From positions 139,790 to 203,789 of the forward strand of contig JAHIRF010000005.1 of the NCBI GenBank assembly GCA_018818785.1: a stretch of DNA of 64,000 bases. The letters are read 5' to 3'. Below the pieces are notes generated by a model. That model saw nothing but the letters and a program-made list of their open reading frames with translations. It was not told where the DNA came from and ran no database searches. The position numbers and the translations under genes are program-made. The number at the start of each line of letters is the position of its first letter. Position 1 is the first letter of the stretch. Positions 4,468 to 47,009 of this stretch are shown in pieces. This DNA comes from Thermoplasmatota archaeon. Lineage in GTDB: Archaea; Thermoplasmatota; Thermoplasmata; UBA10834.

Positions 4468-4547
4468 GACTACTCCTCCGCAGATTCAGTCAGCTATTCT
4501 CCAGTCAGTTCGAATAGACATTCCTATCGTCGGTCGAGAAGGGCGCC

Positions 4548-7770: not shown

Positions 7771-7816
7771 AGCGCTCACCTTCGAAAGTGATTATTAATG
7801 AGAAAGGCGGAGAAGA

Positions 7817-11937: not shown

Positions 11938-12406
11938 CCCTCTTCTTCGGTCCCTTGGATATCGATTTCTCCATCATGTATGCGTGCTTCTTGGCGCCGT
12001 AATAATCTTTCGCCATGGTCTTCAGAACATACCCGTGTTTGAGGTATAGGCTGATGGCCGGGGTGTTCTCTATGCCGACCTCGAGGCCACACCGGCGAAC
12101 CCCCAGGACAATCATCTTTTTCTCGCATTCAATCAATAGGCGCGAAGCCAACCCCTTCTCGCGTCTGCCATCCAGGACTGCGATGGATGCGATGCGTCCT
12201 TCCCCGCACCTCTTCGAGAACATGCACATGGCTGCCCCTACGATCATCTGTTCATCGACCGCGACCAATGCGATGGTATCGTTCCTGACGATGAATGCGG
12301 TGACGGTCTCCTGCTCGAACCGTCTCTCATCGAAACATTCCGCCTCCAAGCGCATGATGCCTGGTAGGTCTTTCATGGTGGCGATCCTCACCTTCACAGA
12401 TGGCAT
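11924..12406 (-). CDS. GNAT N-acetyltransferase (RimI-like)
   Basis: IRIATMKDLPGIMRLE at the N-terminus and an acetyl-CoA motif RREKGLASRLL. Start set at the internal ATG 12406, because the longer ORF overlaps the asnS start. Convergent 14-nt overlap with the ileS 3' end. Confidence 0.6.
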   Translation of the reverse strand: MPSVKVRIATMKDLPGIMRLEAECFDERRFEQETVTAFIVRNDTIALVAVDEQMIVGAAMCMFSKRCGEGRIASIAVLDGRREKGLASRLLIECEKKMIVLGVRRCGLEVGIENTPAISLYLKHGYVLKTMAKDYYGAKKHAYMMEKSISKGPKKRVKVS

Positions 12407-12479
12407 ACAACACTGCTTCGATATGTTCGTTGCGCTTCTTCCGAAGGGCTTATATTCGCCATGGGACTTCAGCATCTGG

Positions 12480-13769: not shown

Positions 13770-13781
13770 AACACCTTCGGA

Positions 13782-14828: not shown

Positions 14829-14853
14829 CTTCTCCGCTTTGCTTATCAAAGTA

Positions 14854-17045: not shown

Positions 17046-17115
17046 GCAACGGAATCGGACTAGTTATGCAAAAGCTTTGGGAACATAATCAAAAGATTCG
17101 CCAGATAAACGACCC

Positions 17116-33889: not shown

Positions 33890-34186
33890 TCATGATTGAA
33901 GTCCACATTCCACCGCAAACTTGAAGCCCTTCCCCTCTTCTTCTTGAACCTTCTTGTAGAAGTCGCAATTCATGCATACGATCACCTTGGGCACGAACGA
34001 TCCCGTGGGTTCTCCTCCACAGAGAGTGCCGGCGACCGCCCAGCATATCCTTCCACCATTCTTCCCATGGTTCATTCCATCCGATCGAGAGTACGTGCAC
34101 GCTGGACATACTCCGCGTTCGGATACCTTGGCTCCTCCAGGGAATCGCTGGCAATCTTTGAACTCCCAACAGTTCTGCACTCCCAT
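33890..34186 (-). CDS. small Cys-rich protein with two CW motifs (10 Cys in 98 aa)
   Basis: MGVQNCWEFKDCQRFPGG...GVCPAC...GGRICWAVAGTLCGG...CMNCDFY. GGTGAGG Shine-Dalgarno 3 nt upstream of ATG 34186. The longer ORF to 34588 overlaps the antisense transposase fragment and is rejected. Confidence 0.45.
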   Translation of the reverse strand: MGVQNCWEFKDCQRFPGGAKVSERGVCPACTYSRSDGMNHGKNGGRICWAVAGTLCGGEPTGSFVPKVIVCMNCDFYKKVQEEEGKGFKFAVECGLQS

Positions 34187-34324
34187 TTCCTCACCACTCC
34201 CAAACGTGCTTCGGATAGAGCACGGTCCGGAGCATGGAATGACGGTACATTTCTGATAAGTCTTGCCATGAATCGGTCTGGAATGCGAAAGCATTGATAC
34301 GCCATCTGAGAGCCATAGAACGGC

Positions 34325-34687
34325 ATGCCGAGTTATCCCAACAAGACTATCAAGAAGGAGCTCGGGAGTTTCAAGCGCAAGGGTGATATGCCTTCGGGCA
34401 TCAAGCAGTACACGCTTCACAAGATCTTGCCTAGCATCCGCGCAGAGAAGTCGAATGACAAGAATGAAAGACTTCACGGCACGGAGAAATCGAGAACCAA
34501 GATCATGAGGGCATTCGACCACGAAGCGGGAGCGTCTGCTTTGATGGACGGATGGAGGGTTCATTACGATATGATTCGGACTCATCAAACGCTCGTCATG
34601 ACACCAGCCGAAGCCGCTGATATTCCGTCATTGCCAGGCTTCAAGTGGTATGAACTAATAAAGCTGGCTAGCAGGCAAAGCTCTTGA
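34325..34687 (+). pseudogene. truncated IS6-family transposase (C-terminal about 75 aa only)
   Basis: NERLHGTEKSRTKIMRAFDHEAGASALMDGWRVHYDMIRTHQTLVMTPAEAADI aligns with the C-terminus of the full transposase at 37891-38880 (IERFHNTLKDRVKILRGFGSRGGASTALDGFVIQYNFLRRHTSLKGMTPAERAGI). Confidence 0.55.
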
Positions 34688-34762
34688 ATATCAGAAAATG
34701 AAATTTAGAGGCAAAAATCATATATAGTGCGATTCAATAGTGGGTAACATAAAATCCCCAGT

Positions 34763-35473
34763 ATGACCCTTCTCTTCACGAAAAGGGGAATGCTGGGTTC
34801 CACTTCTTCAATCATAATCTCCTGGAGGAATGATAAATCGGACGCTATCATATTCATTGATGGAAACAATTTCTATCACAACTCACGATCAATGGGAATT
34901 AAGCCTGGGAGCATAGATTTCGATAAGCTCATCAATTTCATCTGTTTAGAGTTCAAATGCAATAGAAAGCAAGTTCGTTACTACAATTCTGAACCAGATA
35001 TTTCGGATGGAACGAAGAAATATTACGGTGCTCAGAAATTCTTCAGCGAACTAAAAAAGCTCGGTTTTATCGTTCAGACGAGAAAACTCCAGAAGCAATC
35101 AAACGAAAAAGAGATCAATGCAAGGATTAAGGTCATTGATGACGAGGAATATTGTCCTATATGCAGACCACTTGTTGAGAATGCATGTATTCAATGCGTG
35201 GGTCGATTCAGCAAAAAGGAAAAGGGCATTGATGTTTGGATAGCCATTGATATGCTAAATCTTTGTCTGTTGCGTAATGAATGCGATATGTGTATATTAG
35301 TGTCGGGTGATGGTGATTTTGTTCCCGCCCTGGATATTATCAAGGGATCTGGCAAGGAGGTTGCATCCACATCCGTATACCATGGATATTCGAATCTCCT
35401 GAGAGAGAAACATAGATTCAAGACAATAACAGAACAGGAACTCGAAGGACTCTTGAAACAAGATCGTTTTTGA
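34763..35473 (+). CDS. NYN/LabA-like domain protein (predicted RNase fold)
   Basis: Motifs IFIDGNNF, GIDVWIAIDML and ILVSGDGDFVPAL. Region looks AT-rich. Confidence 0.6.
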   Translation: MTLLFTKRGMLGSTSSIIISWRNDKSDAIIFIDGNNFYHNSRSMGIKPGSIDFDKLINFICLEFKCNRKQVRYYNSEPDISDGTKKYYGAQKFFSELKKLGFIVQTRKLQKQSNEKEINARIKVIDDEEYCPICRPLVENACIQCVGRFSKKEKGIDVWIAIDMLNLCLLRNECDMCILVSGDGDFVPALDIIKGSGKEVASTSVYHGYSNLLREKHRFKTITEQELEGLLKQDRF

Positions 35474-35670
35474 CTAATGCACTCAGACTCGCCACCATCC
35501 GAAGATTTACAGCGGAAAACGTCAGACGGAAACCACCCGTTAATTAGACAGAACCGAGACCAAGGGCATTGTTGCATTAAGTATGATTCAGTAGATGTCT
35601 CCGAAATGCTTGTCTGACGATTCATATGGCCAGTCGTCGGAATATTGTGAGCCCTCATCATGTCACATTC

Positions 35671-36273
35671 TCATTTCAGAGGAACTAGTAGCCACCGATC
35701 ATGATTAAGGAAGGGCACGAAGATGTTGCCACCGCTGTCTCTGTTGGCCAAATACGTATGAATCCCGATTTGGTTCAAGGACAGATGCATGAATCGTTCT
35801 ATGTAGAATTCCCAGGGTCTCTCCGATGTCGTCCTTGGTTCCTTTTCCAGGAGCTTTAGGGCGGTCTCAGAGCAGTCTTGCAGGTATTTCATGAAGATTG
35901 GCCAACCTTCTTGTCCAAATCCATCTCCCTTTTCTTTGCTGCCCTCTTCTCCAGTATAATCATCACCCGGTTTTCCATGTGCTCCGAAATGTGGTGACGG
36001 ATCGCTGATGCCCTTCAATCTTTCTTCGAGCTCGATTCTGATTTCTGCAATATCTGAATCGACCCCATAAAACCTCAATCTGATCTCTGGAGTTTTCGGT
36101 TCCAAGACTGGGCATTCTTCTCTTAGAAAATGCCATCTCATGTCCTGCCTACGCTCTTGCGCACGTTCCTTTACCTCATTCACATAGTTTTTCACAAAGC
36201 CAAGCAGGACTCTATCGAAATCCCCCGCATTTCTCAGATGGATATTTACCTCAACCCACTTGTATTCACTCAT
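35671..36273 (-). CDS. hypothetical protein
   Basis: No confident family. ATG 36273 (MSEYKW...) preferred over the GTG at 36282. Confidence 0.4.
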   Translation of the reverse strand: MSEYKWVEVNIHLRNAGDFDRVLLGFVKNYVNEVKERAQERRQDMRWHFLREECPVLEPKTPEIRLRFYGVDSDIAEIRIELEERLKGISDPSPHFGAHGKPGDDYTGEEGSKEKGDGFGQEGWPIFMKYLQDCSETALKLLEKEPRTTSERPWEFYIERFMHLSLNQIGIHTYLANRDSGGNIFVPFLNHDRWLLVPLK

Positions 36274-36352
36274 TTGAACCACCTACGGTCATGAATGCGT
36301 CTGCTGATAGATTATCATTCTTATCTGGGCCAGTCAAATCTGAACGCGGCAC

Positions 36353-36730
36353 TCAACATTCTTCAGGCCAAGGTGTCGATGTTATTCCCTGCATCTTGCG
36401 CATTTCCTTATGGTTCCCAACCCACCAGCAAATTATCGTATTCTTGGGAACCTCATTGCAGGGGCATCTATGCTTGGTCTGATGAATAGTCCCTATGCAT
36501 TCCCAGCAGAGAGTCACGATTATTCGGAGGTCTTTTAGGACCTTTATCTCCCTATCGCCAGCCAGGCCCGCAGTGAGTGGGTAAGTGAAGTGTTTTGGAT
36601 TCTCAAGAACCTTCTTCAATTTCTTCTCGATAGCGCTACGCGCTATGGGGTCACCAATACATTTGAGACATTCCTTGAATTTTGGATGAAAAAGAAAAGA
36701 TGGTGGTTCATTCGGACTCAAAGACTTCAC
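36353..36730 (-). CDS. RelE/ParE-like toxin-fold protein with a Cys/His-rich C-terminus
   Basis: About 125 aa. FKECLKCIGDPIARSAIEKKLKKVLENPKHFTYPLTAGLAGDREIKVLKDLRII resembles a RelE/YafQ-type fold. GTG start overlapping the upstream Panacea gene. Confidence 0.35.
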   Translation of the reverse strand: MKSLSPNEPPSFLFHPKFKECLKCIGDPIARSAIEKKLKKVLENPKHFTYPLTAGLAGDREIKVLKDLRIIVTLCWECIGTIHQTKHRCPCNEVPKNTIICWWVGNHKEMRKMQGITSTPWPEEC

Positions 36731-37394
36731 TCCATGTCAGGAGTTCCTTTGCCTTAAATGGTGTCTCCAGCGTTTCTCTGATCTCTGGGTATCTGTATGA
36801 GAACATGAGATCCAGAGTTCGTATCCATTCTTTAGGAATCTCAAATTCGTAACTGACATCCCGCAGCTTGATCGGATTGAGCAATGGGGTACCATCTGGT
36901 ATGTCGTCTATCTTTGCCGTCGAGTCTCTATAGGGAACTTGGCATCTGTGACTCAGATCCCTCAATTCCCTACCAGTATACTCTCCAAGATGGTGAATCC
37001 AACCACTTAGATGGTCGATTATTGGGGCGTTCTCTCCCGAATCAATGAACTCAGACATCTGGGAGACAAGCTCTTTCCCTTCCTTTGTTATCGCCTCGAT
37101 AGCTTTGTTCTGACCTTTTAACTCTACGAATCCAATCTGGTTAAAGAGGTCAAGGTCCTTGACAATCTCAGCACTCATCGGTCCATGTGTCCATTTAAAG
37201 AATTGGTAATTGATTCCTTTTATCCGCTTTACCTGAGCATCGTACTGATTGAAAAACGCGGTCTTCTGAATTTTCCATTTATCCAAAGTGCCATATTCAG
37301 AAAGCCCATTCATTGTGTACAATAACAGCACTTTGTTTATAATCTCATCAACCTCTGCGAGGTCGTCCATCTCACCCTGCTCGACGCTTATCAT
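36708..37394 (-). CDS. Panacea (DUF4065)-domain antitoxin-like protein
   Basis: KVLLLYTMNG...KWTHGPMSAEI matches the Panacea pattern (KLLYfa...hGPv). Co-directional and overlapping with the downstream toxin-like gene. Confidence 0.5.
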   Translation of the reverse strand: MISVEQGEMDDLAEVDEIINKVLLLYTMNGLSEYGTLDKWKIQKTAFFNQYDAQVKRIKGINYQFFKWTHGPMSAEIVKDLDLFNQIGFVELKGQNKAIEAITKEGKELVSQMSEFIDSGENAPIIDHLSGWIHHLGEYTGRELRDLSHRCQVPYRDSTAKIDDIPDGTPLLNPIKLRDVSYEFEIPKEWIRTLDLMFSYRYPEIRETLETPFKAKELLTWSEVFESE

Positions 37395-37890
37395 TCCTAT
37401 CCGTCCAAACGACTATCTATTCCATCAAATTCTCACTTTCACGGGTGCCAATGTTAGCTAGTATAATATGATTTTGATATGTCATTCAGCGATATTAAGC
37501 TTGCCGACTGACGCATTCATAATGATTTCATACCGGGATTTTTTGTATGCTGGCTAACAAATTCTAGAAATGAGAACGCGGCTCAAATCATTCGATAGAC
37601 TGAAACGACTTGTTTTCGACGACCCCACACTTCAGCTCGGGCTAGAGGATTTCGGCCTGGCTGGGGATAGCTACTTATACAACACGCACCAATTAGGGTA
37701 TATTGAGGGTGCAAATAACCCCTCTTGGATGGGACGGTATGGAAGTAACGATACCCGATGCCGACATAGTGATCGAGGCCGGAGTAACGGAAGATGGCCG
37801 GATATACGGCCTCAAGAAGTACGCTGGCCGTACGGTCAAGATTGTCGTGCTAGAGGAGAAACGGAAGAAGTAAATCGACACCAAACAACA

Positions 37891-38880
37891 ATGGGTGACT
37901 GGGCCGGAGGTTGCCGCCTCCGCCCAGTCGGGAGGCCCGATACCTTGAATATCAGACCCCCAGAGAATCACATCAAGCTTGAACCGAATAAGACTTTCGC
38001 AGGTAGGACCGAAACTGGTCATGTAGGATGCAAGTTCTGCAAGAGCCACCAGGTCGTCAAGAATGGCAAGCGTGGCGATAAGCAGCTCTACAAGTGCAAA
38101 TCATGTGGCAAGCAATTCGTAGACAATGAATGCTTTCCGAGGATGCGCACCAGTGCACGAGCAATCTCCGTCGCTCTCGAAGCCTATTTCGATGGTCTCT
38201 CACTCGCTAAGGTCGTCAATCTTCTGAGGCGCGTGTATGGAATCACCATAAACAGGGCGACAGTCTGGAGGTGGATTCAGAAGTACGTTCCTTTGGTCAA
38301 GAAGATGATGGGCCAGTTCACCGCCAATGCAACTAGTTCATGGCACGCAGATGAGACTGCAGTGAAGATCAAGGGAAATATCCATTGGTTCTGGGATGGC
38401 ATCGATTATGATACGCGCTTCATCGTGATGGGTTTGCTCACTCGAAGACGTTCTGTCTCTAACGCTCGCAAGTTCTTCATTGGAGCCAAGGCACAAGTGG
38501 GCGGAAAGGCTCCTGGAGTCATAGTGACTGATGGCTGTGGCTCCTATCGGAAGGGTGTCACAAAGGCGTTCTGGAGAAAGGTCCAGCTTGGAGAATGCAC
38601 TCTTATCCAGAAAGCTGGGTTAAGGGCTAGGTTGGGTAAGCTCTCCAACAATGTGATCGAACGATTCCACAACACCCTCAAAGACCGTGTCAAGATTCTA
38701 AGAGGATTCGGGAGTCGAGGTGGCGCATCAACTGCCCTTGACGGATTCGTGATTCAGTATAACTTTCTTCGAAGGCATACCTCATTGAAAGGTATGACTC
38801 CTGCAGAAAGGGCTGGAATCAGACTACCGACCGTGATGGGATGGGGCGACCTCATACAGTGGTCTCTGAAGCGTTCATAG
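37891..38880 (+). CDS. IS6-family DDE transposase with N-terminal Zn-finger
   Basis: DDE region HADETAVKIKG...WFWDGIDYDTRFIV matches the IS6 DETyvKvnG...YlyRAVD pattern. N-terminal CKFC...CKSC zinc ribbon. The ORF-track extension from 37570 is low-complexity and probably non-coding. Confidence 0.6.
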   Translation: MGDWAGGCRLRPVGRPDTLNIRPPENHIKLEPNKTFAGRTETGHVGCKFCKSHQVVKNGKRGDKQLYKCKSCGKQFVDNECFPRMRTSARAISVALEAYFDGLSLAKVVNLLRRVYGITINRATVWRWIQKYVPLVKKMMGQFTANATSSWHADETAVKIKGNIHWFWDGIDYDTRFIVMGLLTRRRSVSNARKFFIGAKAQVGGKAPGVIVTDGCGSYRKGVTKAFWRKVQLGECTLIQKAGLRARLGKLSNNVIERFHNTLKDRVKILRGFGSRGGASTALDGFVIQYNFLRRHTSLKGMTPAERAGIRLPTVMGWGDLIQWSLKRS

Positions 38881-38897
38881 TGCAATAGTGCAGATAC

Positions 38898-39770
38898 TCA
38901 CTTAGGTTTTCTGAAATGCATCATGTTGTGATGTTGATGGTTTATTCTGTATGCATATGGGTATCCGAAAGGGAACAATGGCTTGACGGGCTGGAGCAAC
39001 ACAACGGTCCCTGAGAACTCGTAACCAATCTTCTCCATCATTGGCACTATGTCTGCCTGGACGCATTTCTCCTTCTTCTTCACCGTGAAGTCGCTCATTA
39101 TGAGAGTGCAATATCTACCGTTCCTAAGCCTGGAGAAGGTCTTCGACATGATGTCCGAGAGAGACTGAATGAACCCACTGTACTCATCGATATTGCCCAA
39201 GTCGTTCTTTCTGTCAGTGTAGCAGGCTACACCTTCTCTCGCCCCCATGCGATACAGTTTCCCATTGTGCTGTCGTATCCCCTTTCCATTGTTCTTGAGG
39301 ATGTTATGGTAGGGCGGAGAGGTCACCACGTAGTCGACCATTGGCACATTATCGAGTTTCTTCAGGGAGTCGCCGATGATATACTCGTATTCTTCTAGAT
39401 CTCTCGACCTCAGTCTCTTCTGGGCAATCTTCTTGTAGTCTGCATTTATGTCAATTCCTATTGCTTTTCGTCCTACCTGGTTGGAGGCAAGCAGTGTCGT
39501 TCCGCTCCCAGCGAACGGGTCAAGCACCGTCATCCCTTTCTTTGTGAACAACTCGACAAGTCTTTGAATATCCCTGACGAGAAATGGTGCGGGATGACTG
39601 TAGGCTTCCTTGTCGTCTGCGCAGCCAACAGATTGCCAGAAGCTGCCGGATAGTAGGAGCCAGTCACGTCCTGACAGATTGTTCAGCTTATTCCTAATAT
39701 CATATTTGCCAGGCTTGTTCTCCTCCGACAGGGGCTTCCTCGGGTTCTTCTTCTCGGTTGTACTCTTCAT
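38898..39770 (-). CDS. site-specific DNA methyltransferase (N6A/N4C, PF01555-like)
   Basis: Motif I VLDPFAGSGTTLLAS and motif IV TSPPYH. 4-nt overlap with the upstream large methyltransferase gene. Confidence 0.75.
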   Translation of the reverse strand: MKSTTEKKNPRKPLSEENKPGKYDIRNKLNNLSGRDWLLLSGSFWQSVGCADDKEAYSHPAPFLVRDIQRLVELFTKKGMTVLDPFAGSGTTLLASNQVGRKAIGIDINADYKKIAQKRLRSRDLEEYEYIIGDSLKKLDNVPMVDYVVTSPPYHNILKNNGKGIRQHNGKLYRMGAREGVACYTDRKNDLGNIDEYSGFIQSLSDIMSKTFSRLRNGRYCTLIMSDFTVKKKEKCVQADIVPMMEKIGYEFSGTVVLLQPVKPLFPFGYPYAYRINHQHHNMMHFRKPK

Positions 39771-42136
39771 TTCAATTCCTTTGCCGTTCGTGTGATTTCC
39801 TTGATGGTTGGCTCGGAGAACCCTGCTAGACGCTCAACATCTCTATATGTTAGGTATCTCCAACTGTTTTCCTCGAATGCTCTGACGAACAGAGGGTCAC
39901 AAACCCTCTTCAATTCCGATTCCCGAGCTATGGGTATTACCATGAACTTGGGAATTGTCTTCTCCGTGTTGGATGCTCTTTGAATGGCTGATGTGAATCC
40001 AGTGGAGTTCTCAACCTCGAAAACGCATTCTATGGACGCCCCATCTTCTGATAGCCAGAGGACATCAATCATCTCTATTCGTTCCAGTTTCAATGATTCA
40101 TAGCTGCCACTGAGGGTAGATAGGTCCACAAATGTCGAAAGGTCACGAAGAGGCTTGTTGAAATCGTAGAATTCGGGCTGCTCTCGTTTTCCCACGAATA
40201 CCGAGAATCCGTTCTTCCTTCCTGCGGCACAGAGCAAGCTAATGATGCGGCTGTGTTCACCAACCGTTTTCACCACCACATCCTTTATCTTCCAAAATCC
40301 ACCAGCTCGAGAGGCGTACTTCTCCAATACCTTGACGATGCCACGTGGGTCGGGAGTGAGGCCATTTGGGTATGTCTGGAAGAGTTCTCCGATGACATCG
40401 TCAAGTCTCACAGAAACTCTTCTTCTGAGTATGGACAGAACTAATTCCTCCACACGGTCTTGAAGTGGTCTGTCTGGGTAGTTAATGTGGCTCTGCGGTT
40501 CTCTGAACCACCATATGTCGCCAGAACCGTCGAATTCGTTCGGCATCACTACGAATGTGCCCTCCTCCCCAGCCTCTCGTCTCAGAACTCTTTCAATTTC
40601 CTGGCTGTAGTCTCTCGGATGGATGTATCCTGCTTGGATCATCTCTGGAATCAACCCCGCAACAATGAACGTGTATGGTGTAGGTTCGTTTCGAATCGCG
40701 ATTATCTCTATGGCTTTCTGCACAATGAAATGCTCTAGACCAGACTGGTCATCGGTAAAATCCACATCCCTGCGTTTGACACATCGTATGTAGAAGTCGG
40801 CTCCAGACGTTCCATACGGATTAGAGACGTTGGATTCACCCGACCTACGATTGTATTGGTGTGTCACTTTGTCGAATCTAAATCCCGCTATCTTGACTGC
40901 ATTCACAAAGTCGTTCCATTCGCGGATCTTCTTGTGGTGGAATGTCACCACCAAGTAGCCATCATCCTTGAGCACTTGATGCATTTGCTTGAACGCATTC
41001 GCCATTCTCGTTCTGTACTGCTCTCTACTAGCTAGACCCTCCTTTATCGTAATCTCAGAACTGAGATCGGGCGCGTATTTCTTATCCACTTCCTTGAGCC
41101 AGACGAGCCATATCAGACTCAGGTCAAGATAGAAGACCAATCCTGCGTATGGAGGGTCCGTGATTATGAAGTCGATGCTTTTCTCTTTAACGTACTTTGA
41201 TAAATCCGCCACATCCAGTGTCCCATAGTTAATGTCCTTGCTCCCGTCGATTTTCTTCTTGACGTTGAGACATGAGACAGATATGTCTTTCTTCAACCTC
41301 TTCTTGGCGTCAATCATTGCTGAGCGAACACTTTGTTTACCCAGGCATGCCCTCTCGAAGATGATTAGAGGGTTCTGTTCAAGGGATTTGCTTCGTATCA
41401 TATAGTCGGCTCTTCCCCAACTCCCTGAGAAATCTCTTTGGGATGCCTTGCTTCTGGGAACCACCATCTTGAATGTAAGATGGAGTGTCTGGATGAATCC
41501 ATACAGCAACTGATGACGAATATCTCTGTCGTCGACCTTGAGTATCTTGTCGAATATTGATGAGAGCAAGTACAGGTTCCTCCTTGTCCAGAGGAACTCG
41601 AAACTGTCCCCACCCACATCTAGGATGAATTTGTGAGTAATGGATGGTGTGGTGGGAAACTTATCCTTTGGATACTTGAATGGTATATCGATGCTCAGCA
41701 TCTGAATCGCTTTCTCTCTGTCAACATCCTCCGCCGGAAGCCGATATTTCTTGCCCGAATTCGTTTCTAGGCACACTTCGTCAACGTTTCCAGATTTCCA
41801 TCTGTAATTGTATACATGAGTGCCCTGGCCCTGATGGAGTCTCATGTAGTGCTCCTTGTACACCAAATCCGATTCTATCGCTTCCTTGATTCTCAGGAAC
41901 TCTTCCACGAATCTTGGCTCATCGAAATTCGTGTCGAACACCTCTATCGTGAACGATGTGATTGGATTCAAGTCGAAGCACAGTGCTCTCCTTCGTGCAA
42001 TGACCGTCTCAAATGCGGACATTGCGCTGCCAGCAAAAGGATCAAGCACCAAGCCACCAGGTGGGCAGTAGCATTCAACATATCTCCGCCAGATATTGTG
42101 AGGTTTCTTCCCCCAGTACTTCATTGCGGTGTACAT
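39767..42136 (-). CDS. large DNA methyltransferase fusion protein (MTase module plus about 300-aa C-terminal domain of unknown function)
   Basis: Motif I GGLVLDPFAGSAMSAFE near the N-terminus and DPPY motif IITDPPYAGLV about 300 aa later. C-terminal region with ECVFEVENST...K. ORF-track TTG start at 42211; the first ATG gives 42136. Confidence 0.55.
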   Translation of the reverse strand: MYTAMKYWGKKPHNIWRRYVECYCPPGGLVLDPFAGSAMSAFETVIARRRALCFDLNPITSFTIEVFDTNFDEPRFVEEFLRIKEAIESDLVYKEHYMRLHQGQGTHVYNYRWKSGNVDEVCLETNSGKKYRLPAEDVDREKAIQMLSIDIPFKYPKDKFPTTPSITHKFILDVGGDSFEFLWTRRNLYLLSSIFDKILKVDDRDIRHQLLYGFIQTLHLTFKMVVPRSKASQRDFSGSWGRADYMIRSKSLEQNPLIIFERACLGKQSVRSAMIDAKKRLKKDISVSCLNVKKKIDGSKDINYGTLDVADLSKYVKEKSIDFIITDPPYAGLVFYLDLSLIWLVWLKEVDKKYAPDLSSEITIKEGLASREQYRTRMANAFKQMHQVLKDDGYLVVTFHHKKIREWNDFVNAVKIAGFRFDKVTHQYNRRSGESNVSNPYGTSGADFYIRCVKRRDVDFTDDQSGLEHFIVQKAIEIIAIRNEPTPYTFIVAGLIPEMIQAGYIHPRDYSQEIERVLRREAGEEGTFVVMPNEFDGSGDIWWFREPQSHINYPDRPLQDRVEELVLSILRRRVSVRLDDVIGELFQTYPNGLTPDPRGIVKVLEKYASRAGGFWKIKDVVVKTVGEHSRIISLLCAAGRKNGFSVFVGKREQPEFYDFNKPLRDLSTFVDLSTLSGSYESLKLERIEMIDVLWLSEDGASIECVFEVENSTGFTSAIQRASNTEKTIPKFMVIPIARESELKRVCDPLFVRAFEENSWRYLTYRDVERLAGFSEPTIKEITRTAKELK

Positions 42137-42468
42137 CGGAGGACGAACATCTTCAACGAGAGCGTAATTGATGTGCGTCACTGCGAAATCAGTTTCCTGC
42201 TGCCCAATCAATTCTTGCCACCTCTCTGTATCCAGTTGAGGATGGCCTCTTCGACCGCAGCCTTGATGTCGCCCTTCTTAAAACCGCCAGACCGTTTGTA
42301 GATCTCGTCACGCAGAGCTTTGTCGACCTCGTGGGAAATCTCAACCTTGGTCAAGTTATCGCAGATGTATGCACGTAAGTACTTATGTACTTTGGTACTT
42401 TAGTTCCTAAGTGTCTGTAACCGGAGCCCTGCGCGTTGATGGGTGTGTTACCGAAGGTAGGACACATC

Positions 42469-42951
42469 TCATCTTCGTGGCTGGTAAACCTTCTTATGAT
42501 AACCATTTCGTCTGAAGAGCTTATATGCTCGCGTGTAGACGTTTCGCCAATCACCCTTGCTCAGGTCCTTGTAGTGACAATTGAGGCCCCGTCTCGTCTT
42601 TGAAGCGATATAGTCTAGACAGCGATGACCATAGGCGATTCTCACATAATCGGTTGCAGTTTCTGGGCGAATTCCTATCGAGCCGACAAAACCGTCAATC
42701 ATGTCGCGTATCCCCTCAGGAGAATGCCAATAATCGAGGTCACGATGGTCTGGGCCAAATTTCTTTGCGTTCTTGTCCATTCTTCTATGAACGCTCGTTC
42801 CGTCAGTATCCTCGTATATCACTCCGTTCTTCACGAGGCGTTTCTCATCAAAATCTAGATGATAGTCCAGAGATGGCACCATTTCCACCCGGAGGCATAG
42901 ATGCCCCTTCGGCCTATTGATGATATTGCAGATCCCATCTGTTAGAGTCAA
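42469..42951 (-). CDS. hypothetical protein
   Basis: Protein-like composition, no recognisable motif. 4-nt overlap with the upstream ORF suggests co-transcription. Confidence 0.35.
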   Translation of the reverse strand: MTLTDGICNIINRPKGHLCLRVEMVPSLDYHLDFDEKRLVKNGVIYEDTDGTSVHRRMDKNAKKFGPDHRDLDYWHSPEGIRDMIDGFVGSIGIRPETATDYVRIAYGHRCLDYIASKTRRGLNCHYKDLSKGDWRNVYTRAYKLFRRNGYHKKVYQPRR

Positions 42952-43544
42952 GAACTCCGAGGTTCCCGCTCTTTCTCCCGCTTTCCAACAATTTTCATCA
43001 GCTGAGGGATGTCCTTCTCCACCCTGGCCGATAGCTTTTCAATTGCCTTCATTACAGGTCTGATTTCAAATGTCGAATTCAAGAATACGACGGTCATCGT
43101 GGGAGCATCGAAGAAGCCAAAATGAGGTGCATTGAGGGGCAGCATCGTGTGCTTCTGGAAATTCACTCCCCCTCTCCTGAAGCCAGGGTTGGCCTTCATC
43201 CACTTGTCGAGCCTTTCGTCGAAGTGGTCGAAATGGTCCCTCATCTTGCGTGAGTTCAACGGGGATGTTTCGAGGATGGAGAATCGCGACTTCAGATGCC
43301 TTGCCCTTTCTTGGCACCTTTCCGATTTGTTAGGTGGCCAGAATGATCTAGAAATACCTGCGGATGAACGGAGCAAAGCCTTCAGACAGAACCAGACCCG
43401 ATCAGCATCTCGAACAGCAATGCTGCACAACAGACCGCGATAAGCCATCTTGGCGTGCAGACAATCGTCTTCCAGTGAGTACTCGAAACCAAGAATCTCC
43501 ATATCCTCCATGCGGTCACCTAATGATGATATGGGATGTCCCAT
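42948..43544 (-). CDS. hypothetical protein
   Basis: No recognisable motif. Sits in the accessory island. Confidence 0.35.
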   Translation of the reverse strand: MGHPISSLGDRMEDMEILGFEYSLEDDCLHAKMAYRGLLCSIAVRDADRVWFCLKALLRSSAGISRSFWPPNKSERCQERARHLKSRFSILETSPLNSRKMRDHFDHFDERLDKWMKANPGFRRGGVNFQKHTMLPLNAPHFGFFDAPTMTVVFLNSTFEIRPVMKAIEKLSARVEKDIPQLMKIVGKREKEREPRSS

Positions 43545-43764
43545 CTCTTAGGATGTATGATTCTGGGCTTCTTCCTTTGGACAAGATCGGGCCTTGGCTC
43601 TCCATCGCTTCCTAGCGGAATCATGGTCATACAACTGAGAACCCTCTCGATTGTCATATGGTTTTGGGCTGCATGTAGGCTACAGGATTGGGCTGTACTA
43701 TCGGCTACCCGCAGTCAATACACTTATATGTGCCACTTGAGTAGAATGCATCCAAGGGAATACC

Positions 43765-43980
43765 GTGAAGTCATACGAAAGAGCAAGGAGCGCCGAAGGG
43801 AAGAAGAGAGAGCCGTACTGCGCCAAGGTGAGCATCGTCGAAACCCAGATGCGAAACATGTGGCCGGATGCGTACTTGATGCCCAGAGAAGCGTACTTGA
43901 TACACCTGCGCATCCTGATTAGCGAGATGACTGCGTTGATAAAGGCGACCGAGGCTGAGATCAAACGAGTAGAAAACTGA
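43765..43980 (+). CDS. hypothetical small protein
   Basis: 71-aa ORF on the strand opposite its neighbours. Weak support. Confidence 0.2.
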   Translation: MKSYERARSAEGKKREPYCAKVSIVETQMRNMWPDAYLMPREAYLIHLRILISEMTALIKATEAEIKRVEN

Positions 43981-43987
43981 TTGGTGG

Positions 43988-44671
43988 TTACTCGGAATCT
44001 GAAGGAGGCAACGAATACAGTTCCTTATCTACCATCTTGTTGAACTCCAGCTGAGCATTGCGCGCCTCCTTATACGTCTCATTCGCATCCAATGAAGACA
44101 TACCTGCGAAGAGGATTAGCACGGACCCAACGACAATCGCTGCAATCTGAAAGCTATCTCCCACCAGAGAGTATGCCAGTATTAAGAATCCCATGCCTAA
44201 CAGACATATCATCGCACGGAGGACCAGCGAGGAACACTTGTCTTCGGCAGTCCATCCCTCAGTGTAGAGTGTTGACACCTTCTCACACTCCCCGAACTTG
44301 CTGGTCAGCTCTTCTGTCAATTCCTTGAGTTGGCCATGCTCTTCGGGCGTAGGGGGCGTCTTCTCAATAAGCGCTTTGACTGCATTGAGGACTTCTGATG
44401 TGTCCTGGTCCTCAGTCATTGCCTTAATGAGACTTTTCCGAATCTCCGCAAATTCAGGGTTTCGCTTCAGGATGTTATCGATCTGTTGAACCGATTTCGT
44501 GAGGTACGTGAGGAAGAACTGATTGACAAGTCTTGAGCGCATAGCTACGTGTTGGTCCCTCCCTTCTTTTCGGAACCTCTCCGCATGAGATCGCAGGTGA
44601 ACGAAGAGCGCCACCAACGCGCCCCCACCGACCAAACACGCGGCTCCAATCGCAACAAAATCATCGGCCAT
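43988..44671 (-). CDS. hypothetical membrane protein
   Basis: N-terminal transmembrane helix (FVAIGAACLVGGGALVALFV) and two C-terminal helices around a long helical region. Confidence 0.4.
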   Translation of the reverse strand: MADDFVAIGAACLVGGGALVALFVHLRSHAERFRKEGRDQHVAMRSRLVNQFFLTYLTKSVQQIDNILKRNPEFAEIRKSLIKAMTEDQDTSEVLNAVKALIEKTPPTPEEHGQLKELTEELTSKFGECEKVSTLYTEGWTAEDKCSSLVLRAMICLLGMGFLILAYSLVGDSFQIAAIVVGSVLILFAGMSSLDANETYKEARNAQLEFNKMVDKELYSLPPSDSE

Positions 44672-44680
44672 AGTCTCTCC

Positions 44681-45310
44681 CTATTCAACTGGCGGTCCTT
44701 CGTACTCGGACTCCTTCGCAAATGATGGATAGTGCTCGTACACGTGCGTTATCAAATCATGAATGGGCATCATATTGTACTGTATCTTGATGTCTACGAG
44801 CCCCTGTCTCAAGCGCGGTTCAAGCGAATCGTAAGCCATCCTTGCTCGTTCAAAACCTTCAGGAGTCAGGCTATAGACTTCACTCCCGAAGCCTGAGGTA
44901 ATCTGGATGAGCCCTTTCCTAATCAGGTCTGAGAAGTCATTCCAAGCACCGTCTGAATACGGCCCGTACTTGTATGGTCGAAATGAGTAGAACCCTTTGA
45001 CATCTTTGAATCGCATCAAGAAGAGAAACAGTTCCTTCATGAGCCGTGTCTTCCCCGCAATCGGTTCGTTGTATCGCTGCCTCCTTCCACCCGCGAAGAG
45101 AAGCATCAGTATCCAGTCTTCTAGTCGAGTAGGAATCTCGCTAATAGTGGCTTTCCTCTCTTCCCAGGGCATCCCTAGCATTTCCCGAATCGCTCCCTTT
45201 CGAGAGCCATTATACCATTTGTGCCATTTAAGCCTAGGCCACTTCTGAGGGTGCTCATCACCATCACCCGACTTGTGACAGAACTGGCAGGACCAGGTTC
45301 GTTCATTCAT
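44681..45310 (-). CDS. hypothetical protein with an N-terminal Cys cluster and a possible winged-helix region
   Basis: WSCQFCHKSGDGDEH at the N-terminus. KTRLMKELFLFLMRF...YSFRPYKYGPYSD resembles Panacea-type or winged-helix segments. Confidence 0.35.
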   Translation of the reverse strand: MNERTWSCQFCHKSGDGDEHPQKWPRLKWHKWYNGSRKGAIREMLGMPWEERKATISEIPTRLEDWILMLLFAGGRRQRYNEPIAGKTRLMKELFLFLMRFKDVKGFYSFRPYKYGPYSDGAWNDFSDLIRKGLIQITSGFGSEVYSLTPEGFERARMAYDSLEPRLRQGLVDIKIQYNMMPIHDLITHVYEHYPSFAKESEYEGPPVE

Positions 45311-45549
45311 ATCCGAGGTCTATCCAATCAAAAAGGCACGATTCCCAGGCTCAAAGTGAGTCTGACGCCCTGAAGGTGCCCATTTCGGAGACCTCTGAAA
45401 TCGTCAGAATCTCGTCTGACTGGACTACCCAGATTCATCCTACTTAATGCAACAATGCCGAGACCAAGAAAGGTATAAATACTCACGAGTTTATACTGAC
45501 ATTTGTCTGACAATTCGAGCAATATCGTCCGACGCCGGGAGACTTCCAA

Positions 45550-45864
45550 ATGGTCGAGTCAGAGCGTGTCACGATAAGACTACCGAATGAGCGCGTCCAG
45601 GCGCTCCAGGCTCTAGTGGATCAGGGGAAGTTCTCCACGCTCTCCGACGCGATCAGAGCCGCGATAGACAAGTTCGTCGAGAGCGAATTCACACCAGAAT
45701 ATATAGAGAAGGTAACAGTCGAGCTGCCTAAGGGCAATGTCGTGAACCTGAAGCAGCTGGTTCAGGACGGCGACTCCGTTTCTGTAGACGACGCCATCAG
45801 AAACGCTGTGCGCGAATACATACGCAAGAGATTGTCACAAGCGATGCAAGAACTCGAAAGGTGA
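45550..45864 (+). CDS. tandem ribbon-helix-helix (CopG/Arc-like) DNA-binding protein
   Basis: Two RHH units in one chain (VTIRLPNERVQALQALVDQGKFSTLSDAIRAAI and VTVELPKGNVVNLKQLVQDGDSVSVDDAIRNAVREYI). Confidence 0.55.
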   Translation: MVESERVTIRLPNERVQALQALVDQGKFSTLSDAIRAAIDKFVESEFTPEYIEKVTVELPKGNVVNLKQLVQDGDSVSVDDAIRNAVREYIRKRLSQAMQELER

Positions 45865-45959: not shown

Positions 45960-47009
45960 ATGCTCAACAAGTTGATCCAGGATGCCCTCGAGACGGAGCG
46001 CGACTTCGAGGTACATCTTGCTCCGAAGATATGCGTCGTGGGCTGCGGTGGCGGCGGTTCGAACAGTGTGCACAGGATCAATAGAGTAGCGCTGGAAGGT
46101 GTCGACACCATCGCTATCAACACGGACAAGTTCCACTTGGCCAGGACCGATGCGAAGAAAAGGCTGCTCATAGGCGAGCATGCGACATTCGGATATGGCA
46201 CGGGCGGAGACCCCGATATAGGCGAGAAGGTAGCGTATGACGCGATGGACAAGATAGAGGCGCTGGTGCGCCAATACGATATCGTGTTCGTCACGGCTGG
46301 CATGGGCGGCGGAACGGGCACGGGAGTCGCGCCAGTCGTAGCAGAGGCTGCGCGAAGACACGGCGCGATATCAGTCGCACTCGTGACGATACCCTTCGAT
46401 ATCGAGAAAGGGAGGTTGCGCGTCGCGTTCAACGGGATCGCGAAGCTGAGGGAGAGCGCTCACAGCACGATCATACTAGACAACAACCGTCTGTTGAAGA
46501 TCGCGCCCAAGTTGCCGATCGAACAGGCGTTCATGGTGATGGACCAGCTCATCGTCGAGGTCGTCAAGGGTGTGACCGAAACGGTGTGCGAGACCAGCAT
46601 GATCAATCTGGACTTCGCAGACTTCAGGAGCCTGATGCTCAAGGGTGGCGCGTCCACCGTGCTCTACGGTGAGAGCGAGGACGCTCAGAAGGTGGTCGCA
46701 GAGGCGATCAGCAACCCACTACTGGATATCGACTTCGAAGGCGCCACAGGCGCGATGATCCATCTCACCGGTGGTCCGTCGCTATCCCTGCGGAAGGCGT
46801 ACGAAGTCTTCAACGGTATCACGAACAAACTCGGAGATTGCGCCCACATCAAACTGGGCGCAAGAATAGATCCGGACATAGGCCAGAGCATCAAGCTGAT
46901 GGCGATAGTCACCGGCGTCCGGACACCCGAAGATACGGACGCGTTCAGGCTCCCAGAAATAGACGGGCTGATCAGCGCCCGGATCGCCATGGCAAACGTG
47001 TTAGGATGA
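45960..47009 (+). CDS. FtsZ-family GTPase, divergent third paralog
   Basis: GCGGGGSN and GGGTGTG tubulin/FtsZ signatures. Shorter than the other two copies and lacks the usual C-terminal tail. Confidence 0.7.
   Translation: MLNKLIQDALETERDFEVHLAPKICVVGCGGGGSNSVHRINRVALEGVDTIAINTDKFHLARTDAKKRLLIGEHATFGYGTGGDPDIGEKVAYDAMDKIEALVRQYDIVFVTAGMGGGTGTGVAPVVAEAARRHGAISVALVTIPFDIEKGRLRVAFNGIAKLRESAHSTIILDNNRLLKIAPKLPIEQAFMVMDQLIVEVVKGVTETVCETSMINLDFADFRSLMLKGGASTVLYGESEDAQKVVAEAISNPLLDIDFEGATGAMIHLTGGPSLSLRKAYEVFNGITNKLGDCAHIKLGARIDPDIGQSIKLMAIVTGVRTPEDTDAFRLPEIDGLISARIAMANVLG

Follow-up and report, generated by a model that had tools for sequence, protein, structure and literature searches.

Members of the IS6 family of insertion sequences are ~0.8 kb in length (0.7-0.9 kb, up to ~1.7 kb), encode a single open reading frame (ORF) and generate 8-bp target duplications, and only one known member, ISDsp3, carries a passenger gene, a single one (Varani et al. 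2021, PMC7986276). Clades with zinc-finger "long" transposases form part of the IS6/IS26 family literature (PMC7986276; Harmer and Hall 2019, PMC6807381). A terminal inverted repeat (TIR) consensus of at least 18 bp has been reported for archaeal members. The units mobilized by IS26 have a directly repeated IS copy at each end and integrate beside a copy that is already present, with no new duplication.

Here, we describe a locus within a 64,000-nt stretch of DNA (the window) from an uncultured Thermoplasmata archaeon that is best explained, with a probability of roughly 0.8, as a single unit transposon (35565-45459, 9,895 bp) loaded with restriction-modification (R-M) and toxin-antitoxin-like cargo and inserted upstream of the promoter of a cdrS-ftsZ2-like operon, next to a separate NYN cassette. 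The element resembles IS6/IS26 in its transposase, an IS240/IS26-type DDE enzyme with the signature N-N-x-I-E-x-x-H-x-x-x-K-x-R, and in its TIRs, which start GGCATTGTTGCA, close to the IS26 end, GGCACTGTTGCAAA. As in IS26 pseudo-compound transposons and translocatable units, an IS6-type transposase would move adaptive cargo, and insertions accumulate beside existing IS6 ends; unlike in those units, there is one transposase, the ends are inverted and 9.9 kb apart, and the 9-bp duplication is fresh. Further differences from known IS6 members are the size (9.9 kb here, 7.9-8.0 kb in sister elements), the ~10 passenger genes on both sides of a central zinc-finger transposase and conserved 44-aa ORF, the 9-bp length of the duplications and an apparent preference for positions 9 bp upstream of a TATA box. 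This departure from the published description (~0.8 kb, 8-bp duplication, at most one passenger) counts against reading the locus as a unit transposon.

A low-GC mosaic

GC content was 48.0% in the segment compared to 55.3% in the rest of the window (by part: transposon 48.0%, NYN cassette 39.2%, remainder 55.3%), and GC3 was likewise reduced. Windows of 9.9 kb elsewhere never fell below 52.3% (mean 55.7, sd 1.1), and 95% of the 1-kb windows inside lay under the outside 5th percentile. These windowed values bear out the impression of the initial annotation that the segment is AT-richer than its flanks. Its further proposal, a single ~11-kb island at 34300-45320, gives way to a mosaic of three parts, an ancestral IS6 remnant, an NYN cassette and the 9,895-bp transposon, upon comparison with the empty site of the closest relative (locus L006; FtsZ 97% identical), which lacks both the NYN gene and the transposon. 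Judged against L006, the inserted DNA comprises 34666-35489 (NYN cassette) and 35565-45468 (transposon plus the duplicated 9 bp). The suggestion of foreign accessory DNA with defence-type genes was sound: the segment is missing in the closest relatives, where the flanking genes adjoin, and profile searches recovered the gene content as described, namely an IS6 transposase, an NYN protein, two PF01555 methyltransferases and, sub-threshold, a Panacea protein. Contigs of 373, 311 and 417 kb, found in ENA, JGI and NCBI listings, encode these same proteins, which argues against mis-assembly. The two leftmost parts are as follows.

34325-34687 (+), IS6-type transposase remnant, C-terminal third only, without the first two catalytic Asp
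34666-35489 (+), NYN cassette, 824 bp, 39% GC, with one NYN (LabA-like) nuclease-domain gene at 34763-35473

The remnant ORF matches rve_3 (E 2.7e-4) and retains a degenerate right inverted repeat at 35540-35555. It had been taken for a truncated direct copy of the intact transposase, but the two share only ~42% protein identity, and at least eight relatives (L006, L009, L010, L012, L013, L025, L037 and L039) keep an orthologous ORF (62-84% identity) directly 5′ of the RHH gene. By these alignments, the fragment is an old, ancestral piece of the conserved flank and lies outside the recent insertions. The NYN cassette, which sits in the tail of the remnant relative to L006 and is absent from L006-L039, is an insertion separate from the transposon; its gene matches PF01936 (E 6.4e-19) and the PADLOC NYN model (3e-11). 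A search for repeats at the cassette borders found none, only a 2-nt "ct" ambiguity.

Transposon ends, empty site and transposase

35556-35564 (no strand), left target-site duplication (TSD) copy, 9 bp, GAGACCAAG
35565-35587 (+), left TIR, GGCATTGTTGCATTAAGT, 18 nt perfect and 22/23 versus the right end
45437-45459 (-), right TIR, pairing with the left end
45460-45468 (no strand), right TSD copy, GAGACCAAG, identical 9-mer to the left copy
37570-38880 (+), IS6-type DDE transposase, N-terminal CxxC zinc finger, catalytic part from ~37987
37739-37873 (+), 44-aa ORF (MEVTIPDADIV...VVLEEKRKK), overlapping the long transposase ORF in another frame

The TIRs are identical at 18/18 positions (chance expectation, 0.09 matches) and the identical 9-mers directly abut both element tips, while L006 presents the uninterrupted target with a single copy of the 9-mer, GGGACCAAG. 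Subterminal sequence is conserved on the left (to ~35620) with the left ends in L047 and L061, and on the right over ~60-80 nt with L041, L042, L050 and L007. Immediately beyond the right TSD copy lies the BRE/TATA-like box, AAAGGTATAAATA, of the downstream cdrS-ftsZ2-like operon (RHH 45550-45864, FtsZ-like 45960-47009). A solo right end of 33 nt sits at the same nucleotide in L007 and L008, so events at the site were more complex than one insertion.

The transposase matches PF13610 (E 2.6e-17), retains an intact DDE signature (ADET, TDG, NNVIERFHNTLKDR) and is identical to a protein (P0121) that NCBI names "IS6 family transposase"; homologues are 57-100% identical, and the 436-codon frame is open in six diverged ones. 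A search for an inverted repeat beside the transposase gene found none. The 44-aa ORF, which has no match in Pfam or PADLOC, precedes the catalytic region in every element of the family, is predicted as a gene of 44-45 aa in L058-L063 and L066, and shows 59-80% identity across loci.

A two-gene methyltransferase and putative nuclease cassette

Type IIG/IIC R-M enzymes with a companion methyltransferase include Eco57I with M.Eco57I and the MmeI family, and in the classical IIG arrangement the nuclease is N-terminal and precedes a gamma-class N6A methyltransferase. One cargo module of the element resembles these systems in that one polypeptide would join cleavage and methylation with a second methyltransferase encoded alongside.

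38898-39770 (-), 290-aa stand-alone DNA methyltransferase, companion of the 814-aa protein
39767-42211 (-), 814-aa fusion protein, candidate R-M enzyme

Unlike classical IIG enzymes, the 814-aa protein begins with a permuted PF01555-type methyltransferase (motif I at about residue 57, DPPY at 352-355), continues with two winged-helix domains (~480-690) and ends in a PD-(D/E)xK nuclease domain (residues 690-814, 39770-40144), a small module like the non-specific cleavage domains of FokI and BspD6I. Its putative catalytic residues read D...ExE, not D...ExK. A nuclease had been suspected in just this C-terminal domain, and the suspicion was well founded: the region carries the precomputed Pfam domain NmeDI_C and is hit by a PADLOC model of type II restriction enzymes (E 3.4e-5). 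The namesake, R.NmeDI of Neisseria meningitidis, is a free-standing nuclease of 351 aa, encoded by a gene that overlaps the one for its own methyltransferase, M.NmeDI (Kwiatek and Piekarowicz 2007, PMC2095814). The matched PADLOC REase_II model, with 351 positions, has the length of R.NmeDI; unlike in R.NmeDI, only the last ~150 residues of our protein (651-796 of 814) correspond, and these are fused to an amino-methyltransferase.

The 290-aa enzyme matches PF01555 (9.6e-25) and, over its full length, PADLOC MTase_II models; its motif I is followed by an SPPY motif IV that looks typical of N4-cytosine enzymes. In both methyltransferases, motif I (FxGxG) precedes motif IV (DPPY or SPPY), as read from the sequences and Pfam coordinates, an order permuted relative to the canonical beta class to which they had been assigned. 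The reported gene overlap at 39767-39770 was confirmed. Four other genomes likewise have the two genes side by side, the 290-aa gene always lying directly 3′ of the large gene (L002/3, L004 and L005), in a cassette conserved across bacteria and archaea.

Most likely, the pair is an R-M system complete in itself. In this scheme, the 814-aa protein would rely on its methyltransferase/TRD and winged helices for DNA recognition, methylate one strand (DPPY, probably m6A) and cleave through its C-terminal domain; protection of the opposite strand would fall to the 290-aa enzyme (SPPY, probably m4C). We consider it rather unlikely that the methyltransferases do not restrict, the 814-aa protein then being an orphan or regulatory enzyme with a nuclease-like domain that is inactive or only binds DNA, possibly shielding the mobile element from restriction of host or foreign origin. 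Besides the two profile matches of the C-terminal domain, three observations oppose such a role: D716, E732, E734 and K755 are invariant in 34 bacterial and archaeal homologues (53-72% identity); a second methyltransferase strictly accompanies the protein, which fits two-strand protection of an asymmetric site from a linked nuclease; and the cassette lies elsewhere in mobile or defence regions with transposases, PIN toxin-antitoxin genes and GmrSD.

Related elements and the insertion site

Two further complete elements, L061 6020-14033 (TSD CGCCGCGAC) and L062 6618-14502 (TSD TTCTGGCAT), have matching TIRs and the same core, and share with the window element the layout of a central 44-aa ORF and zinc-finger IS6 transposase within 9-bp duplications; in both, an R-M gene adjoins the transposase and is joined by other defence-like cargo. 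The core (37600-38867 in the window) is 73-74% identical at the DNA level in L058-L060, and the gene at the 3′ end of the transposase varies: the window has its PF01555 methyltransferase pair there, L058 and L062 have HsdS plus N6_Mtase, and L060 and L061 have MmeI-like enzymes, so that the MmeI-like type, too, travels as cargo of sister elements. A TIR pair was not recognised in L058, L060 (right end only), L064 and L066, and no compact copy, consisting of ends and transposase only and tying the one to the other, was found. That most of the region is one TIR- and TSD-bounded transposon of a recurrent family had escaped the earlier reading.

Wherever a right end can be recognised, the right inverted repeat (IRR) is followed by 9 nt and then a TATA box. 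Across the family, this TATA box is usually that of the RHH-FtsZ operon; islands with this transposase lie 5′ of RHH-FtsZ in the window, L062/63, L064 and L066, and most relatives have remnants of an IS6-type IRR directly beside the RHH TATA box. As judged from these alignments, related elements have landed repeatedly just 5′ of the same cell-division operon, apparently preferring a position 9 bp upstream of a TATA box. The transposase would synapse the two distant ends and insert them with a 9-bp stagger, the right end landing 9 bp upstream of the TATA box at an old IS6 landing site.

An improbable alternative is that the island was assembled piecemeal, its two inverted repeats being the outer ends of different decayed IS6 copies, brought together as a pseudo-compound transposon or by independent insertions. 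IS6/IS26 elements do classically move cargo as pseudo-compound transposons between two IS copies (PMC7986276), the site is strewn with IS6 end remnants that fall into at least three sequence types, and the older IS6 remnant lies directly to the left. Such an assembly is nevertheless hard to reconcile with a lone, central transposase gene without an adjacent inverted repeat, with ends that are inverted rather than direct copies and whose distinct left- and right-type subterminal sequences are conserved in other elements, with a 9-bp duplication around the whole unit and an exact empty site in L006, and with the two other complete elements, each with a single transposase and a 9-bp duplication.

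Orphan proteins and candidate toxin-antitoxin pairs

In addition to the R-M module, the unit transposon would carry stabilising or defensive cargo in the form of three orphan proteins and two Panacea-type pairs.

35671-36282 (-), 203-aa cargo protein, borderline Lant_dehydr_C / thiopeptide-type bacteriocin biosynthesis domain
42469-42882 (-), 137-aa protein of a small orphan family; listed ORF extends to 42951
42948-43544 (-), 198-aa (or 187-aa) orphan protein, one homologue only

The 203-aa protein matches PF14028 at E 3.7e-5 (24.5 bits, cut-off 24.4) and TIGR03891 sub-threshold. The 137-aa protein, with no Pfam or PDB match, belongs to a family of 33 cluster representatives in which H32, D36, H46, H53, H86 and D90 are invariant in the alignment. 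The overlap described at 42948-42951 needs a TTG start, but homologues of the 137-aa protein begin at residue 24-26 of the listed ORF and the gene caller leaves a 65-nt gap. In L065, the gene for the sole homologue of the 198-aa protein (P0167, 54% identical) is directly followed by a BglII-type restriction enzyme gene, a PF01555 methyltransferase gene and an HTH gene.

That these hypothetical genes (42469-43544) encode the nuclease partner of the two methyltransferases, as had been proposed and as their position (same strand, directly upstream of the large methyltransferase), the His/Asp pattern of the 137-aa protein, compatible with a metal-dependent hydrolase, and the BglII-type neighbourhood of P0167 might suggest, is highly improbable given that neither gene accompanies the cassette in L002/3, L004 and L005, that neither product matches a nuclease family (Pfam, PADLOC, NCBIfam, PHROGs and PDB), that the 137-aa protein lacks similarity to the BglII-like enzyme of L065, and that the 4-nt overlap between them rests on the doubtful start.

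36353-36730 (-), ParE/RelE-like candidate toxin, 125 aa, with an inserted Cys/His zinc-ribbon; start codon uncertain
36708-37394 (-), Panacea (SocA-like) candidate antitoxin, 228 aa (Pan228); PF13274 sub-threshold
43988-44671 (-), membrane protein, 227 aa; by eye, one N-terminal and two C-terminal hydrophobic helices with a charged helical middle
44681-45310 (-), second Panacea-like protein, 209 aa, candidate antitoxin; PADLOC PDC-M19A 1.2e-14

Membrane-disrupting and ParE/RelE-like classes have both been described among PanT toxins (Kurata et al. 2022, PMC8832971). The cargo pairs resemble PanA-PanT systems in placing a SocA/Panacea-like protein beside a small unrelated partner, ParE/RelE-like in one case and a membrane protein in the other; they differ in that the Panacea matches are sub-threshold or come through PADLOC and PHROG models only, in being predicted from sequence, and in the zinc ribbon inserted into the toxin candidate. 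Pan228 matches PF13274 at E 0.0018 (19.6 bits, cut-off 25.7) together with phrog_1281 and phrog_14939, and its homologues in L060 and L062 adjoin small partner genes. The 125-aa candidate toxin matches ParE_toxin sub-threshold (E 0.12). In L062, the Pan228 homologue is followed by a 130-aa gene whose product is homologous to the candidate toxin (E 6e-7) and matches ParE-like_toxin at E 0.018. The overlap noted between the toxin candidate gene and that of Pan228 (36708-36730) holds only with a GTG start for an ORF left uncalled by the metagenome gene caller.

The 209-aa protein, previously listed as hypothetical, matches the same PADLOC model as Pan228 (PDC-M19A), has phrog_14939 in common with it and shows weak direct similarity over the W..GP.S core. 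The 227-aa gene lies 10 nt downstream on the same strand, and its product, for which only weak profile matches were found, is a candidate toxin of the adjacent Panacea-like protein. This second pair had been overlooked in the earlier reading.

A transposon and a second insertion upstream of the RHH–FtsZ operon

Annotation with Pfam, PADLOC and NCBIfam recovered most of the gene list of the initial annotation: an IS6-type transposase, a C-terminal IS6 fragment, a NYN protein, a sub-threshold Panacea protein and two PF01555 methyltransferases, together with several proteins without family assignment. The right flank carries a ribbon-helix-helix (RHH) gene and an FtsZ paralogue, and the left flank two SQHop_cyclase-like "toroid" genes and a two-CW-domain gene; neither tRNA genes nor Rfam families were found inside the segment or at its borders. 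The features discussed here are as follows.

34325–34687, IS6 fragment
34666–35489, NYN cassette
35565–45459, transposon
35565–35587 and 45437–45459, terminal inverted repeats (TIRs)
36353–36730, 125-aa ORF
36708–37394, 228-aa Panacea-like protein
37570–38880, transposase
37739–37873, 44-aa ORF
38898–39770, 290-aa methyltransferase
39767–42211, 814-aa methyltransferase
42469–42882, 137-aa protein
44681–45310, 209-aa protein
45550–45864, RHH protein
45960–47009, FtsZ paralogue

The 232-aa ORF at 33890–34588 (minus strand) is over-extended; its last 98 residues alone (33890–34186) match the two-CW domain (NF045718, 9e-29), and these are the portion kept in relatives.

Repeat finding identified a 23-nt inverted repeat at 35565–35587 and 45437–45459, whose tips GGCATTGTTGCATTAAGT are identical at 18 of 18 positions (chance expectation, 0.09 matches) and both adjoin the 9-mer GAGACCAAG. 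The closest relative (L006) is uninterrupted at this locus, running from the IS6 fragment through a degenerate IS6-type end ttaattagacagaacc and a single GGGACCAAG to AAAGGTATAAATA and the RHH gene, and is an exact empty site. On the strength of the TIRs, the abutting 9-mers and this empty site, 35565–45459 is one 9,895-bp insertion with a 9-bp target-site duplication (TSD). Comparison with the same relative also revealed a second, independent insertion of 824 bp (34666–35489), consisting of the NYN gene alone and lying inside the tail of the IS6 fragment; repeats were looked for at its borders and none were found. The single island of about 11 kb proposed initially is therefore replaced by a transposon and a separate small insertion. 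Nor is the IS6 fragment the truncated direct copy it had been taken for: it shares ~42% protein identity with the intact transposase, and an orthologous ORF (62–84% identity) lies directly upstream of RHH in at least eight relatives, so that the fragment has long been present there. The region is an IS6 hot spot of mosaic make-up, most of it a single IS6-type cargo transposon that is delimited by TIRs and a TSD and belongs to a recurrent family, apparently undescribed. Its cargo is a compact restriction–modification (R-M) module and toxin–antitoxin-like pairs, for which we infer activities, methylation types and toxin–antitoxin roles, as we do the choice of target.

Base composition agrees with the by-eye impression of an AT-richer segment. 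Computed in 2-kb windows, the GC fraction is 0.45–0.50 in the segment vs. 0.55–0.59 on both flanks, with 48.0% GC across 35565–45459 and 39.2% across 34666–35489, compared to 55.3% in the rest of the window. The lowest value among 9.9-kb windows elsewhere is 52.3% (mean 55.7, s.d. 1.1), 95% of the 1-kb windows within the segment have a GC content under the 5th percentile of the outside windows, and GC3 of the segment genes is shifted in the same direction. A second, smaller dip (0.48) at 3000–5000 holds an acetyltransferase-like ORF and a Cys-rich ORF (by eye from translations), next to tRNA-Gly (6721–6793).

The window derives from an uncultured Thermoplasmata archaeon. A scan for the FtsZ paralogue, taking one genome per species, yielded 34 loci. 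Since the order RHH, FtsZ, SpoU methylase, pseudouridine synthase is retained in all 34, the right flank is core genome; the NYN gene and every gene of 35671–45310 are absent from all 34. The three closest relatives by FtsZ identity (L006, 97%; L008, 96%; L007, 94%) have the "toroid" genes and the two-CW gene within 150–260 bp of RHH. An integrated plasmid or virus was dropped as an explanation, integrase, replication and structural genes all being absent from the region, and the idea that the RHH–FtsZ pair belongs to the mobile element was dropped as well, since all 34 relatives keep the pair in synteny with genes for SpoU, pseudouridine synthase and primase.

A recurrent family of IS6-type cargo elements

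The transposase matches PF13610 (DDE_Tnp_IS240, E 2.6e-17) and rve_3 (7e-9), shows the DDE and K/R residues, and is identical to a protein that NCBI names "IS6 family transposase". A gap of 17 bp separates its stop codon from the convergent methyltransferase gene, and no inverted repeat flanking the intact transposase gene itself was found. IS6 family members measure ~0.8 kb, with 14-bp ends, 8-bp TSDs and a single member that has one passenger gene (PMC7986276); archaeal members are reported to have a longer end consensus (at least 18 bp) and a debated family status (PMC6807381). The element in the window resembles IS6/IS26 in its DDE transposase of IS240/IS26 type and in short conserved TIRs starting GG at both tips. 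It departs from the 8-bp rule (PMC7986276), as do its two complete sister elements, in having 9-bp TSDs. It also departs from the compact plan of about 0.7–1.7 kb filled by one transposase ORF, measuring 9,895 bp with about ten passenger genes (sisters, 8,014 and 7,885 bp), and its family has an extra 44-aa ORF. IS6/IS26 elements are known as minimal insertion sequences, with cargo transported solely by two-copy compound structures. An IS6-type element that combines one transposase with a 9-bp TSD and ten passenger genes extends the reach of this transposase type, and offers a concrete means by which defence genes could be exchanged within an archaeal class that is uncultured and poorly studied.

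Searches returned 46 transposase homologues, the few with a named source being Thermoplasmatota/Thermoplasmata. All those traced to contigs lie within accessory regions, each preceded by a conserved 44–45-aa ORF, and their surroundings are as follows.

L058/59: HsdS and N6_Mtase beside or around the transposase
L060: MmeI-like 903-aa enzyme; HEPN_AbiV and a Panacea-like gene
L061: MmeI-like 957-aa enzyme
L062/63: HsdS and N6_Mtase
L064: HD, DUF3800, Panacea and a ThiF/Prok-E2_E/Multi_ubiq set (8776–11261); island at the RHH–FtsZ site
L066: Schlafen/AlbA_2-HATPase protein and a 2,046-aa protein without Pfam record (7285–17067); island at the RHH–FtsZ site

Two of these loci hold complete sister elements. 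That of L061 (6020–14033, 8,014 bp) has ends beginning GGCATTGTTGCG and GGTATTGTTGCG, and that of L062 (6618–14502, 7,885 bp) has 20-nt identical ends, TGCATTGTTTACTTCGTGTTG. All three complete elements have 9-bp TSDs (GAGACCAAG in the window, CGCCGCGAC in L061 and TTCTGGCAT in L062), and subterminal sequence is conserved between elements over 55–80 nt, left-type and right-type separately. No TIR pair was recognised in L058, L060, L064 or L066. A TIR scan of viral contigs gave no match; in metagenomes it gave 18, with similarity beyond the 18-mer in four only (L041, L042, L047, L050), the remainder being at chance level. In L047 (139–1259) a left end almost identical to the window's over 55 nt precedes a different, 317-aa ORF, so that the cargo beside the left end is also exchanged. 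That ORF resembles the Panacea domain by eye (…RFNKIAYL…WHWYLFG…), with no significant match in Pfam. Separately, a 107-nt non-coding stretch upstream of the 198-aa gene (43527–43630) is 75% identical to L058 5664–5770, where the nearby genes are otherwise unrelated to the window's.

Upstream of the catalytic region of the transposase (37570–38000 in the window; also L058, L060, L061, L062 and L064), two overlapping frames are both conserved. The first 150 codons of the 436-codon frame are stop-free in each of six homologues of 57–77% identity, and the 44-aa ORF in the +1 frame (37739–37873) shows conservative substitutions and terminates in A-rich GAGAAACGGAAGAAGTAA. These could be overlapping genes, or a programmed frameshift could fuse the small protein to the transposase. 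The ORF had no match in Pfam or PADLOC, searches that likewise left a resemblance to DUF2080 unconfirmed.

A proposed target site at cell-cycle promoters

Wherever a right end was recognised, it is followed by 9 nt and then by a BRE/TATA-like box of a gene pointing away from the element. This gene is RHH in the window, L062, L064, the relative L007 and the metagenome loci L041 and L050, and smc in L061; L060 has a homologous promoter flank with a downstream gene lacking family assignment. Transposase-bearing islands occupy the upstream side of RHH–FtsZ in the window, L062/63, L064 and L066, no element end being recognised at the L066 junction. Most relatives examined, island-free ones included, have an IS6-type right-end remnant abutting the RHH TATA box; these remnants (L006–L039, 9–40 nt upstream of the box) are of three types, GGCATTGTTGCATTAAGT, GGCATTGTTAACTTGAGT and GGTTCTGTCTAATTAAC. 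Two relatives (L007, L008) have a 33-nt solo right end of the window element's type at the same nucleotide, which fits either a site hit repeatedly or an insertion later deleted or exchanged between lineages.

By gene arrangement, an RHH gene followed by an ftsZ paralogue matches cdrS-ftsZ2, an arrangement described as conserved across Euryarchaeota; in Haloferax, cdrS is essential, and repressing it reduces ftsZ1, ftsZ2, sepF and an smc homologue (PMC8406309). Repeated landing next to this promoter, which serves an essential cell-division operon, offers a testable instance of archaeal target selection and could affect expression of the operon.

The heptamer GTCNGAC has a background of 0.27–0.43 per kb. 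Two copies lie in the 70 nt beyond the right end of each of the three complete elements, in the RHH and smc promoter regions, and four of the six ends have one copy in the first 90 nt of the element, about 45 nt in. Five of the 17 copies in the window lie within 90 nt of the element tips.

Window: 35612, 45414, 45505, 45527, 35521
L061: 14079, 14090, 6066
L062: 14548, 14570, 14457

We hypothesize that the heptamer may be a targeting motif, an operator or a regulatory cue. We propose, tentatively (probability roughly 0.3), an undescribed Thermoplasmata family of IS6-derived cargo transposons (8–10 kb, 9-bp TSDs, a 44-aa accessory ORF overlapping the transposase frame) whose members would act as carriers of exchangeable defence modules (different types of R-M system, Panacea pairs, ubiquitin-like ThiF/E2 systems and Schlafen-like genes). 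These elements would select their targets, setting the right end 9 bp upstream of a TATA box that belongs to a cell-cycle gene (smc or the cdrS-ftsZ2-like RHH–FtsZ operon), a possible cue being the paired GTCNGAC in those promoters and the copy ~45 nt inside element ends, perhaps read by element proteins or by the host RHH regulator.

A candidate compact restriction–modification module

The gene for the 814-aa protein lies on a 373-kb ENA metagenome contig, and identical proteins are encoded on 311-kb (JGI) and 417-kb (NCBI) contigs; the protein has >1,200 matches at E ≤ 1e-5. Among the 120 matches listed (54–100% identity), all but one, a 692-aa protein without NmeDI_C, carry both PF01555 and PF27126 (NmeDI_C), as assigned by precomputed Pfam hits; the few named sources among them are bacteria, and both bacteria and archaea are given for the family. 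A plasmid collection gave distant matches only (<30% identity), to the methyltransferase part. A homologue of the 290-aa methyltransferase directly follows that of the 814-aa protein in four of four other loci (L002/3, L004, L005) in the same order, while all other neighbours differ, which makes the two genes a self-contained unit in mobile or defence contexts.

Both proteins contain PF01555, with FxGxG and DPPY motifs in the 814-aa protein (VLDPFAGS near residue 57, TDPPY at 351–355) and FxGxG and SPPY in the 290-aa protein (VLDPFAGSG near residue 83, TSPPY near residue 150). Motif I precedes motif IV in both, a permuted arrangement relative to the beta order with which Pfam coordinates agree, and the proposed beta-class assignment is accordingly not borne out.

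The proposal of a nuclease within the large methyltransferase itself gains support from NmeDI_C, from the alignment of residues 651–796 with the C-terminal half of a 351-position PADLOC model for type II REases (E 3.4e-5), and from the invariance of D716, E732, E734, R745 and K755 in 34 homologues, features of a restriction-enzyme-fold nuclease domain with conserved acidic residues. Sequence searches of the PDB with this domain (single sequence and profile) gave no match. Nucleases listed with the protein were R.BspD6I small subunit, Hna, Tox-REase-5, NucC, NgoMIV, HindIII, BsaWI, BglII, FokI, AgeI, BstYI, PspGI and EcoRII. The alternative that neighbouring hypothetical proteins (42469–43544) supply the nuclease finds no support, given that the neighbours of the cassette all differ in L002/3, L004 and L005. 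In the NmeDI gene organisation, the nuclease has the NmeDI methyltransferase gene alongside (PMC2095814). Unlike NmeDI-type REases, with homology over the whole 351 aa, the 814-aa protein matches by residues 651–796 only, and in place of the NmeDI methyltransferase the partners here are PF01555 amino-methyltransferases.

The 814-aa protein is most likely a combined R-M enzyme and the 290-aa protein its companion methyltransferase. On the established reading of these motifs, DPPY in one enzyme and SPPY in the other would point to m6A and m4C marks on opposite strands, the pattern of type IIS systems with asymmetric sites. The 814-aa family appears to represent compact R-M enzymes of an uncharacterised class, with an unusual domain order, and is a possible source of new specificities.

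Toxin–antitoxin-like pairs and orphan cargo

The initial annotation named a toxin–antitoxin pair of a Panacea-domain and a RelE-like protein. The 228-aa protein matches PF13274 (E 0.0018) at 19.6 bits, below the 25.7 cut-off, and has homologues in L060 and L062. The 125-aa ORF downstream (36353–36730) has a homologue (E 6e-7) in L062 that occupies the same downstream position, so that the adjacency of a Panacea-like gene and a small partner is conserved there. Both small proteins show sub-threshold ParE-type matches and a Cys/His zinc-ribbon insert; the L062 homology and the ParE-type matches in both give the RelE-like call weak but convergent support.

The 209-aa protein (44681–45310) has no Pfam match; it matches the PADLOC model PDC-M19A (1.2e-14), which the 228-aa protein also matches, and phrog_14939 is common to the two. 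After 10 nt its gene is followed by that of a 227-aa protein with three hydrophobic helices by eye. Toxins that disrupt membranes are among the documented partners of Panacea antitoxins (PMC8832971), and the two genes would form a second Panacea pair with candidate toxin–antitoxin roles.

The 137-aa protein (42469–42882) belongs to an orphan family of 33 clusters, with no relative in Pfam, PDB or PADLOC, whose invariant VH-x3-D ... H-x6-H ... GH-xx-LD pattern suggests a metal site. Comparison with the BglII-like enzyme of L065 showed no similarity. The 198-aa protein has one homologue in 5.8 billion clusters, which lies in that locus (528–3149) immediately upstream of the BglII-family endonuclease, with a convergent PF01555 methyltransferase and a small HTH gene; because of this neighbourhood, it may be an R-M-associated accessory protein. 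The 203-aa protein has a borderline Pfam match to Lant_dehydr_C.
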